From: a virus
DNA length: 64,000 bases
IMG/VR virus record: IMGVR_UViG_3300035039_000082
Location: 39,999-103,998 of that record
Strand: one strand, 5' to 3'
Position numbers and translations under genes: made by a program. The notes below the pieces were generated by a model, which was not told where the DNA came from, did not search any database, and worked only from the letters and a program-made list of their open reading frames with translations. Below, in pieces: positions 8,791 to 62,136 of this stretch. The stretch's first letter is position 1, and each line of letters starts with the position of its first letter.

Positions 8791-8960
8791 ACTAATTGTT
8801 CATAATCCCTTACCAATTTGAGGGGTTTAATCCTTACCAAATAAAGGAGAAAGTTGATGTTGGAATCTGCTATCCGTGTACCAACCTGTTAATCTGAGTA
8901 ACAATTAGTAACCCTTTTAATAAGGGTGATACAATATCTATTTATATTGTATCACCCTTA
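8791..8960 (+). ncRNA. Candidate structured sRNA with repeated TACCAA motifs
   Basis: Promoter motif at ~8772; outer stem actaattgtt/aacaattagt, inner hairpins, terminal hairpin agggtgatacaata/tattgtatcaccct; no ORF. Confidence 0.55.
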
Positions 8961-20250: not shown

Positions 20251-20391
20251 ATAATTCGTTATGTGAGAATATTAATATATTTTAATATTCTCACATATTT
20301 ATTTGCTTTTCATATTCTTAAATTATATATATAAATATTATTAATATATTTATATTTTTTTAATTTTAAGAATAAAGGAGGATATGAGTGC

Positions 20392-21489
20392 ATGTCTATA
20401 ACAAGTGTTAATTTATCTGCTTTACCATTTATGGGATCTTGTGATTCTACAAGAGCTCAAATGGCATCTAAACAAATGTCACAAGCTTTAACTCATCCAA
20501 ATTGCGAAATTCCATATGTTATTTCAAATGAATATAGGAATTTAGTAAATTCGAGTTTTTTGGGTATTTGTATTGCTAAAGATGATGGTGAAGTGATATT
20601 TAACGCAAGTGAAATTTTAATTATTTATTATAATAATTTAAAAAAATTACAAGTTTTTCAAGTTCCTATTATTAAAAAAACATCTAGTATGTTTGCGTCT
20701 AGTTTACGATTTATATTACCTCAAGGTTTAAAATTTAAAAAAAATGATATTATATTTAGTTATGATGGTTTTAAAAATGGAATACCATCATTTGGGTATA
20801 ATGTAATGACAGCTTATATGGCTGGGTGGGGATTTAATCATGAAGATTCACTTATAATCAGTGAATCTTTTGCAAGAAAAGCTAAAGTAAAAATTAGTGA
20901 AAAAGTATATATTCCTATTTATGAACATACTATTTTAATGCCTATTTATAAAAATATAGATGATTCTTTAATTTATTTTCCAAACATTGGTCAAAAAATT
21001 AAAGGGACAACTGTATGTTCTACAGTGAGACCAAACGCGACAAATTATGCCGAGTCCAATAAAAGTATTAAAAATAAAATGATGTTATTTTTTAAGAATG
21101 CAACAATTACAGACCTTTTAAATCTTAACAATCAAAATACGAATAATATTAAAGTTGAAGAAGTAAAAACAAAAATTGAAAATGGAACAATTACAGGATT
21201 GAATATTCATAGACTTCAAAAAGGAGTTAATTTAATTGATCCAAGATTCCAAGATTGTTTAAATAAATTAGTTATAAATTATTGTGAACAGAATATTTTT
21301 TCAACTTTTAATGATTTGCAATGTAAATTTAATCAAGATTATGCAAAGCAAATTATTAAACAAAATATTATGTATTCAGCTGATCAGAAATCTTCTAATA
21401 AAAGTATGATGAAAAATGCTATTTATTTAATTGAATTAGAAATTACTAGAGAAGATTCGAGTCAGATCGGCGACAAATTCTGTAATCGT
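20392..21489 (+). CDS. rpoB: RNA polymerase beta C-terminal subunit, exon 1
   Basis: LPFMGSCDSTRAQMASKQMSQA, GYNVMTAYM..GFNHEDSLIISE, ends IGDKFCNR. Confidence 0.92.
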
Positions 21490-25590: not shown

Positions 25591-25626
25591 TTTTTGCGTA
25601 TTCAAAGATTTTATATATAAATATTA
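25591..25626 (+). promoter_or_regulatory. Promoter-like motif, copy 1 of a near-exact duplicate
   Basis: tttttgcgtattcaaagattttatatataaatatta; copy 2 at ~25831 differs by 1 nt. Confidence 0.65.
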
Positions 25627-25629
25627 TAG

Positions 25630-25812
25630 ATATAAGATGATAATCCTTTTTAGGATTAAAGTTTTTCCGGGAGTGGTAATAACTTTTTTGTTATTGCTTT
25701 CTCCTCCCACATAGATATATTTATATATCTACGGTCAGTGGGTTTGCCATCTCCAGAACAAAGAAGTTTATATTAGTGTTTACATTAATATAAACTTCTT
25801 TGTTCTTTTTGA
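25630..25812 (+). ncRNA. Candidate structured sRNA, unit 2
   Basis: Hairpins, CCCAC/GTGGG stem enclosing a hairpin, TTGCC, long terminator hairpin agaacaaagaagttta/taaacttctttgttct. Confidence 0.55.
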
Positions 25813-25830
25813 GTTATTTTTCATGTTTAT

Positions 25831-25866
25831 TTTTGCGTATTCAAAAATTTTATATATAAATATTAA
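25831..25866 (+). promoter_or_regulatory. Promoter-like motif, copy 2
   Basis: ttttgcgtattcaaaaattttatatataaatatta. Confidence 0.65.
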
Positions 25867-25867
25867 T

Positions 25868-26012
25868 AATGAAGGGCGTAAGTCCTTCTCAGGAAAAATA
25901 AAGGTTTTATGCTTTTATTTTTTCCTCCCTCAGAGGTATTTATACCTGGATGAGGGTTGCGGGTTTTTAAAAAGATAACAGTCTCCTTCTGGAGAAGGTT
26001 ATCTTTTTATTT
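25868..26012 (+). ncRNA. Candidate structured sRNA, unit 3 (homologous architecture to unit 2)
   Basis: GTAA tetraloop hairpin, 13-bp hairpin, CCCTCA/TGAGGG stem enclosing a hairpin, TTGCG, terminal hairpin. Confidence 0.55.
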
Positions 26013-28770: not shown

Positions 28771-29400
28771 ATGATAGATTATATAATAGTTAGTTATGCA
28801 ACTGAAGATAAAAAATATTTAAACTATGCTAATAGATTTTTAAATAATTTAAAGAAATTAGATATTCTAAATTATGATATCACTTATATCAAACCTTTTA
28901 ATTCTGAAGATGCACAAAAAATTTGGAATTATAAATTAGATAAAATAATAGCTCCAAAGAGATTAGCTGCTTTATATAAACCAACAATAATATTAGATAA
29001 AATATTACAATATAAAAAGATGATAATTTTTATGGATATAGATGCAATTTTAACAGGTAAACCTAATTTTTCTGAAATTAAAAATTCTTTTGATGTTGGT
29101 ATTACTTATAAAATTGATAATAATAATAATCTTCCTATATGTGATGCAGTTCATGTTTATAATTATACAGAAAATGCTATTCGACTATTAAAATCTTGGA
29201 AATCTTTTTGTGATATATCGAATATATCTTATTTTGGAGATCATCGACGATTAAATATATTAATTAATTTATTTCAAGAAGAAAATAAAATATTTAAACA
29301 AGATTTTAAATTAATAGATGTAACTAATATTTTTAAAGATATTTTTAAAGAAACTATGTCATTATCTAATAAATCAAGAGGATTAAGAGGAGCTAAATAA
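28771..29400 (+). CDS. Nucleotide-diphospho-sugar transferase-like protein (GT-A)
   Basis: KPTIIL, DIDA, HVYNYT, DHRRL. Confidence 0.65.
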   Translation: MIDYIIVSYATEDKKYLNYANRFLNNLKKLDILNYDITYIKPFNSEDAQKIWNYKLDKIIAPKRLAALYKPTIILDKILQYKKMIIFMDIDAILTGKPNFSEIKNSFDVGITYKIDNNNNLPICDAVHVYNYTENAIRLLKSWKSFCDISNISYFGDHRRLNILINLFQEENKIFKQDFKLIDVTNIFKDIFKETMSLSNKSRGLRGAK

Positions 29401-43211: not shown

Positions 43212-43224
43212 CTATCAAAAAAAA

Positions 43225-43440
43225 TAAAAAAAGAGTAAGGCGGTTCTTTGATGGACTCTCTATGTTACTAGAGATCCAGAACCGCCTTTTTCCAGGTTTT
43301 TTTCTTTCCGATAATCGCTCGCCCTCCCTATTGGGAGAACTGCGCAGCGCAGCTTTGAGTAAATCTAAATCCCAAAGCTGCTAGATTTACAGAAATGGCA
43401 TTTTTTTCTCCTTTCCCCGCTTAGGGAATTTTTATTTTTT
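43225..43440 (-). ncRNA. Candidate sRNA with SD, 4-codon ORF and 9+9 bp H-type pseudoknot
   Basis: Minus-strand promoter motif 43455-43478; AAGGAG-n6-ATG CCA TTT CTG TAA; pseudoknot 43349-43390; terminal hairpin 43237-43288. Confidence 0.6.
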
Positions 43441-43542
43441 TGATATTAATAATATTTATATATAAAATTTTTGAATATTAAAAAAAAGATTCCCCTCCCT
43501 ATCAAGATACTTTTGAAGTATTTGATAAGGAGGGAAATGAGT

Positions 43543-47465: not shown

Positions 47466-47475
47466 AATAAATAAT

Positions 47476-49295: not shown

Positions 49296-49387
49296 AGAAT
49301 CTAAATTTTGCCGCTTCCAAAAAAAAATAAAATAGGATAAGATAATAAAAATTATTTTATTATCTTATCCTATTTATAATTTCATTT

Positions 49388-62087: not shown

Positions 62088-62136
62088 TTAAATAATTTGC
62101 CGCTTTCAAAAAATTAAATAGGAATTATTATATATT

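Follow-up and report, generated by a model that had tools for sequence, protein, structure and literature searches.

A 244-bp cassette lying between two convergent phage genes was identified as a real, non-random and self-contained unit. We tentatively favour reading it as a strain-specific accessory unit, an RNA-only 'moron' carried on a 0.95-kb mosaic block and equipped with what would be a ribosome-loading 5' end. The first-pass annotation of the region had proposed a small RNA with a perfect pseudoknot over a stop codon, possibly a mimic of an RNA antitoxin; the stand-alone small-RNA gene on the minus strand held up on sequence grounds, whereas the static knot and the antitoxin mimic did not.

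Genomic setting of the cassette

The window (the whole stretch of 64,000 nucleotides that was analysed) belongs to a 109-kb IMG/VR virus record, estimated to be ~52% complete and with a GC content of ~22%, whose gene content includes a split multisubunit-RNAP beta-like gene, two group I introns and an NAD-dependent ligase. No tRNA or tmRNA was found, and the only matches to Rfam 15 at the gathering score in the whole window were the two group I introns, away from the cassette. The cassette site is a 331-nt gap separating two convergent ORFs of 161 and 106 amino acids, neither of which matched a Pfam, PHROGs or PADLOC family, and terminators flank the unit on both sides. The features of the region, with the kind of evidence for each, were as follows (window positions):

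43211 (end), plus strand: 161-aa ORF, on one side of the gap
43217..43288, minus strand: T2, a long interrupted hairpin (43288-43237) with a T-run; direct reading and folds
43236..43479, no strand assigned: the 244-bp cassette, a present/absent indel; whole-contig comparison with the sister contig G001
43235..44180, no strand assigned: divergent mosaic block of 0.95 kb; sliding identity to the sister phage
43305..43395, minus strand: predicted three-way junction; folds by MFE, centroid and RNAalifold
43348-43317, minus strand: hairpin 3, GC-rich, with a CUCCC/GGGAG core; direct reading and folds
43349..43390, minus strand: 42-nt core of interleaved complementary segments; direct reading, folds and shuffles
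43387..43413, minus strand: initiation region and minigene (MPFL*); direct reading
43413..43428, minus strand: 5' hairpin of 6 bp, UUCCCU-AAGC-GGGGAA; predicted folds
43444..43477, minus strand: AT-rich phage promoter motif of 34 nt, TATTCAAAAATTTTATATATAAATATTATTAATA; recurrent genome motif
43537-43490, minus strand: T1, the terminator of the 106-aa gene, followed by a T-run; direct reading
43543 (end), minus strand: 106-aa ORF, on the other side of the gap

Presence and absence of the cassette among phage lineages

The sister contig G001 (IMGVR_UViG_3300035102_000070) is collinear with the window and cleanly lacks the cassette: the alignment of the two stops at 43480 and restarts at 43235, nine nucleotides (CT(T/C)TTTTTT) being common to both sides. 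These form the direct repeats that flank the cassette, CTTTTTTTT (43488-43480) and CTCTTTTTT (43235-43227). The exact 106-aa protein was recovered from five other contigs, two of which bridge the gap and have the cassette at 100% identity, and two more terminate inside the promoter motif; one further 90% cluster of this protein has several members. The filled-site contigs were L014, from a JGI sample, and L013/L016, from a Logan assembly. The site is empty in about 20 contigs from at least four sequence lineages, in which the gap measures 76-78 nt and reads AAATCT(C)T7-8AT7AAT. The cassette is known from one lineage only, where three same-strain assemblies carry it unchanged, and the empty sites of at least four sister lineages show that they can do without it. 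All lineages with an empty site group together, opposite the one lineage that is filled, and gain versus loss is thus unpolarised.

Identity to the sister phage falls to 77-86% between 44180 and 43235, compared with 99-100% in the flanks of this block. It holds the 3' part of a 199-aa gene, the 106-aa gene, T1 and, at its right edge, the cassette, a position which suggests that the unit travels with the mosaic block from an unsampled donor lineage. Where convergent genes meet, the sister contig also has two small protein genes of ~257 nt (G001:C1:31058-31315 and 28874-29132) that the window lacks at the corresponding sites (47466-47469 and 49381-49387). That these gene-boundary indels are complete genes suggests that cassettes of such a size are normal exchange currency here, and a moron-like gene pool is consistent with both the cassette indel with its 9-nt repeats and the small-gene indels, about 250 nt long, that lie between genes.

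Phage morons, as known from the lambdoid phages, are self-contained promoter-gene-terminator inserts between conserved genes. The cassette resembles them in being a discrete, clean insert between genes that are adjacent in its relatives, with its own predicted promoter and terminator and a distribution limited to one lineage. Unlike them, it carries no protein gene, the longest frame behind its ribosome site being of four codons, and its payload is ~150 nt of GC-rich folded RNA.

Promoter motif and terminators

The promoter motif that had been claimed upstream of the ribosome site is present at 43477-43444 on the minus strand, and it proved to be the phage's own recurrent 34-nt element (TATTCnnnAAtTTTATATATAAATAatAttAATA, with a T-run ahead of it), which is spread over window positions 7794-60903 on both strands (e.g. 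at 20313, 25599, 25838, 39483, 41669, 43934, 44636, 48242, 52016 and 60903). The cassette copy served as the query, and hence has zero mismatches to itself; with it, 17 copies were found in the 109-kb genome at up to six mismatches, versus 0.07 in composition-matched shuffles, and more than 30 at up to eight. Copies point the same way as the downstream genes and usually lie 10-60 nt ahead of the start; one of them precedes the RNAP beta-like ORF at 20392. A highly conserved core (ATATATAAAT) occupies the position of the sigma-70 spacer, and the motif may therefore serve a phage polymerase.

The nearest kin of the cassette copy were those at window positions 25838 and 41669 and at genome position 11013, with two mismatches each. 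No ORF of at least 45 codons was found within 400 nt downstream of the cassette copy, and several further copies precede GC-rich non-coding stretches. Tandem ncRNAs at 25591-26012, when compared with the cassette by eye, resembled it in no more than the promoter and one short 5' hairpin, and they gave no match to the cassette covariance model. The JGI contigs L015 and L017 stop exactly within the promoter motif of the cassette; assemblers evidently break at this repeated 34-mer.

Downstream, the further hairpins and the terminator noticed in the first reading were recovered as hairpin 3 and as T2 with its T-run, separated by an A-rich spacer. T2 is a two-way terminator, canonical on the plus strand for the convergent 161-aa gene, and with a U-tract that begins 4 nt past the stem on the minus strand. 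On the other side of the cassette, the pairing of T1 (43490-43537; loci L007, L018 and L023) is kept across lineages by compensating changes, its variants being TTATC/GATAG, TCATC/GATGA and TTATC/GATGG.

Ribosome site and four-codon frame

Direct reading and scripts agreed with the translation signals first described: AAGGAG at 43413-43408, a 6-nt spacer of six A's, and ATG CCA TTT CTG TAA at 43401-43387 on the minus strand, with a 5' hairpin at 43428-43413 whose plus-strand sequence resembles a small terminator, a T-run coming after the hairpin. This is the make-up of a minigene, with a strong Shine-Dalgarno (SD) sequence, an AUG and three sense codons ahead of UAA, and the predicted folds leave both the SD and the AUG unpaired. 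Another in-frame stop, TAG, lies two codons after TAA (43383-43381). The start context, AAAGGAGAAAAAAATG, recurs letter for letter at genome position 4897, where it opens a real gene of 72 codons. The pattern AGGAG-N5-9-ATG occurs 51 times in the genome, opening ORFs of more than 60 codons in 37 cases and frames of ten codons or fewer in eight; a tiny frame behind such a ribosome site is therefore unusual but not unique. A second promoter-to-terminator unit of this make-up was seen at 8791-8960, where a full ribosome site (AAAGGAG, 7 nt, ATG) opens an 11-codon frame (MLESAIRVPTC*; ORF 8857-8892, plus strand) ahead of the terminator.

A minigene of 2-8 codons ties up the tRNA that reads its final codon, and the effect grows as the minigene gets shorter (PMC2490762). 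By this route, rapid cycling and peptidyl-tRNA drop-off on the cassette RNA would deplete tRNA-Leu(CAG) and bias host translation, a role consistent with the strong SD, the four codons, and a final CTG that accounts for 1.9% of the phage's Leu codons; CCA and TTT are its preferred Pro and Phe codons. We nevertheless hold such a role to be very improbable, since it rests on a single codon that is also constrained by stem a (the G of CTG doubles as its first base), since the toxicity of minigenes is known mainly from Pth-defective E. coli, and since the elaborate 3' structure would be left unexplained. The likeness to the lambda bar and synthetic 2-8-codon minigenes (PMC2490762) extends to a strong ribosome site and a few-codon frame in a phage genome, whereas the bar minigenes have two codons and lie within longer transcripts, and that of the cassette heads a dedicated structured RNA.

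Two recoding schemes were also considered for this frame. Stop-codon recoding was rejected, the genes being normal table-11 genes throughout, as was a bypass in the style of T4 gene 60, with an in-frame CUG directly 3' of the knot, for which no nascent-peptide signal was found.

Interleaved complementary segments

Segment a (GTAAATCTA, 43390-43382), which begins at the third base of the CTG codon, is followed directly by segment b (GCAGCTTTG, 43381-43373), then by GGATT, segment a' (TAGATTTAC, 43367-43359), a single T and segment b' (CAAAGCTGC, 43357-43349). Both a:a' and b:b' are perfect 9-mers, and their order, a-b-a'-b', is that of the interleaved helices of an H-type pseudoknot. Perfect interleaved stems of at least 9 bp were found at only two loci in the 109-kb genome, the other of which (window positions 49326-49371) is an AT-only artefact of a perfect 16-bp terminator hairpin; this terminator separates convergent genes and has an A-rich 5' flank. 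In 100 block shuffles there were 0.28 interleaved loci per genome, each with at most two G/C among its 18 stem bases, compared with seven in the cassette. The interleaved perfect 9+9 arrangement is thus beyond chance.

The minus strand of the cassette folds better than its shuffles (z = -2.88, 0/200 shuffles as good), versus z = -1.34 for the plus strand, a bias in keeping with a minus-strand RNA. Neither segment a nor segment b recurs elsewhere in the genome, and on these grounds the idea of a DNA site was ruled out.

Probable competing helices in place of a full pseudoknot

The two 9-mers had been taken to form a perfect 9+9 H-type pseudoknot. Both are present, but the full knot is sterically excluded, because the loops that connect the segments are of 0, 5 and 1 nt (L1 = 0 nt, L3 = 1 nt), whereas an A-form model of coaxial 9-bp stems calls for groove crossings of ~25 Å and ~34 Å; a link of 0 nt covers no distance, and one of 1 nt covers ~7 Å. 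Which groove takes which figure depends on a sign convention of which we are unsure, and in the model both crossings are far out of reach under either assignment. This model excludes a perfect 9+9 pseudoknot as the folded state. When trimmed variants were enumerated, at most ~13 of the 18 pairs could coexist (e.g. as 7+6 bp), and the allowed partial knot, at about -13 kcal/mol by a crude duplex sum, is no better than hairpin b:b' alone, which extends to 11 bp around an 11-nt loop (AUUUAGAUUUA) at -15.3 kcal/mol. The a:a' helix is AU-rich and weak (-7.0). When the full transcript was folded as a nested ensemble, b:b' was predicted with P = 0.998 and a:a' with ~1e-5, and forcing a:a' cost ~7.7 kcal/mol. 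These predictions favour a reading of the segments as rivals for pairing, with at most a partial docking of the loop.

The predicted three-way junction is closed by stem P1, which pairs 43395-43384 with 43316-43305 (UUUCUG..AAUC with GAUU..CGGAAA) and would enclose hairpin b:b' and the GC-rich hairpin 3. In constrained folds, P1 was lost when the ribosome footprint was masked at initiation, and the base of hairpin b:b' also opened when the footprint was placed at the stop codon. All three known copies of the cassette are identical, with no sequence variation to compare among them.

The placement of segment a where an initiating ribosome meets the mRNA was correct: it begins at +12 of the AUG, inside the ribosome footprint, and covers the stop codon. 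With the exposed, strong SD and a partial knot of ~7+6 bp that is sterically allowed, this arrangement would suit a ribosome trap, in which a stable pseudoknot over the stop holds or senses the ribosome at initiation or termination, much as the rpsO and alpha-operon operators do. These operators of E. coli, and the leader of T4 gene 32, have workable loops, a known protein and a downstream gene that is controlled. The cassette has in common with such ribosome-entrapment and T4 gene 32 pseudoknots its pseudoknot potential beside a translation start; it differs from them in its loops of 0 and 1 nt and in having neither a partner protein nor a regulated downstream gene. Taken with the energies above, by which the partial knot is no better than the b:b' hairpin and a:a' is weak, these differences make a ribosome trap very improbable.

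Protein-coding readings and searches for relatives

No ORF of 20 codons or more was found on the minus strand of the cassette region. A 40-codon ORF on the plus strand has no ribosome site, lies inside the hairpins and had no family or homolog. The frame that starts at the ATG is open for 59 codons past its two stops, as might be expected if the cassette were vestigial, that is, the remnant of a small protein-gene moron that kept its promoter, ribosome site and terminator, and whose body now does nothing but supply a second terminator between convergent genes. Such an origin would sit well with a size near that of the ~257-nt protein-gene indels of the sister phage, with the canonical start context, with an orphan, strain-specific and dispensable cassette, and with a T2 that serves the 161-aa gene as a canonical plus-strand terminator. 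The openness of the read-through frame is weak evidence, because its last ten codons are a T-run outside the cassette, and searches of PHROGs, of the phage and of 1.84 billion protein representatives gave no relative of the frame. The RNA body, moreover, has ~44% GC in a genome of ~22% GC, with codons (GCG, CTG and CGC) that are very rare in the phage, and two perfect 9-bp complementarities that are not of low complexity, together with a fold z of -2.9, would be unexpected in a decayed coding sequence. We therefore regard a vestigial origin as unlikely, and as a less likely reading than a small-RNA gene.

Searches for relatives of this candidate small RNA gave none. The cassette had no blastn match in 50,697 phage and 72,556 plasmid records; five exact cassette patterns had no match in IMG/VR, and a 19-mer searched in JGI metagenomes gave four matches, all of them chance matches within unrelated genes encoding LDLLKAA. 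A covariance model of the cassette identified no paralog in the 109-kb genome or in the 40.7-kb sister contig, its best other match (21 bits, E = 0.027) being to AT-rich sequence, and Rfam at E<=10 returned only sub-threshold chance matches in the local region. A search for antisense targets in the phage contig gave only matches of 11-16 nt that were either of low complexity or antisense to an SD. Ribozymes of the HDV-like, pistol and twister kinds and a group I intron core were rejected, for want of an Rfam match or of the required helices.

Comparison with RNA antitoxins and CRISPR-repeat mimics

The suggestion of a type III antitoxin mimic was not borne out. The cassette resembles ToxI and other type III antitoxins (RF02519) in being a small, phage-borne RNA with pseudoknot potential, and it departs from them in lacking tandem repeats, a toxin gene and a match to the model. 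The repeats sought were tandem direct repeats of ~34-45 nt; TRF found none in the RNA body and gave a single array, AT-rich and with a period of 15, in the region of the promoter. The ToxI model, run against the whole genome at E<=10, had no match in the cassette, and none of seven neighbouring proteins had a PADLOC or Pfam match, so that no ToxN/AbiQ-like or other defence protein was recognised nearby.

More broadly, the cassette might be an anti-defence decoy that mimics an RNA antitoxin or, like the Racr RNAs, a host CRISPR repeat. Solitary repeat-like RNAs of phages act as anti-CRISPRs (PMC10651486), and a promoter-to-terminator small RNA in a flexible part of the genome, present in one strain and absent from its sisters, would be in keeping with this role. 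Against it stand the negative results above and the lack of an exact match, among 185,579 species genomes (GTDB), to two 23-mers, one from the knot and the other from hairpin 3, a search whose scope was exact identity and not inexact likeness. Usual CRISPR repeats, besides, are unlike a 9-11-bp stem with an 11-15-nt loop. We regard a decoy as very improbable.

Proposed mode of action

For the reading that we favour, that of an accessory RNA-only unit, the following course is proposed. Transcription would start from the phage's recurrent promoter class and stop at the two-way terminator, giving a minus-strand RNA of ~210-215 nt. Its 5' hairpin would be followed by the exposed, full-strength SD and AUG, the 4-codon frame, and a three-way junction in which P1 closes over the 11-bp hairpin b:b' and hairpin 3, which is GC-rich. 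The two 9-mers would act as competing or partly docking helices, with b:b' as the ground state and a' displayed in its loop, and segment a, which overlaps the last sense codon and the stop, would pair either with its P1 partner or partly with the loop of b:b'. Ribosomes would load at the exposed site, and reading of the minigene would open P1 and the base of hairpin b:b', so that ribosome occupancy would set the fold and shield the 5' part of the RNA.

A role as a 5' stabiliser can be drawn for the cassette RNA only by analogy. In B. subtilis, RNAs are shielded against 5' decay when ribosomes initiate at a strong SD (PMC5737220), and the combination of a 5' hairpin and a strong SD near the 5' end recalls 5' stabilisers of Firmicute RNAs, namely the STAB-SD of cryIIIA and the initiating ribosomes on hbs mRNA (PMC5737220, PMC3997798). 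Such a combination could block 5'-to-3' decay; the Firmicute elements protect protein-coding mRNAs, unlike the cassette RNA.

A more active role has a slim chance, in our estimation: the RNA might engage host ribosomes through its rare-codon 4-codon frame and its two-state helices over the stop, cycling or stalling ribosomes or sequestering tRNA-Leu(CAG), and so tilt translation phage-ward; it would then belong to a broader class, so far undescribed, of 'ribosome-loading' RNAs with a mini-ORF. The importance of the cassette, an invariant orphan predicted from sequence, is uncertain. If expressed, an RNA-only moron would be a small swappable module whose product is a folded, ribosome-recruiting RNA and not a protein. 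The interleaved segments also carry a lesson for annotation, in that perfect interleaved complementarity marks a possible switch and not automatically a pseudoknot. Near-identical phage pairs with and without the cassette coexist in the same oil-field samples, which would permit a direct comparison of fitness given a culturable phage or surrogate host.

Elsewhere in the contig, a stretch of ~3.1 kb with 43% GC runs from window position 62112 past the end of the window (64000) to 65254, the latter boundary being a genome coordinate. It holds an ORF with fn3 and repeats, is missing from the sister contig, and has a composition foreign to the 22% GC genome.
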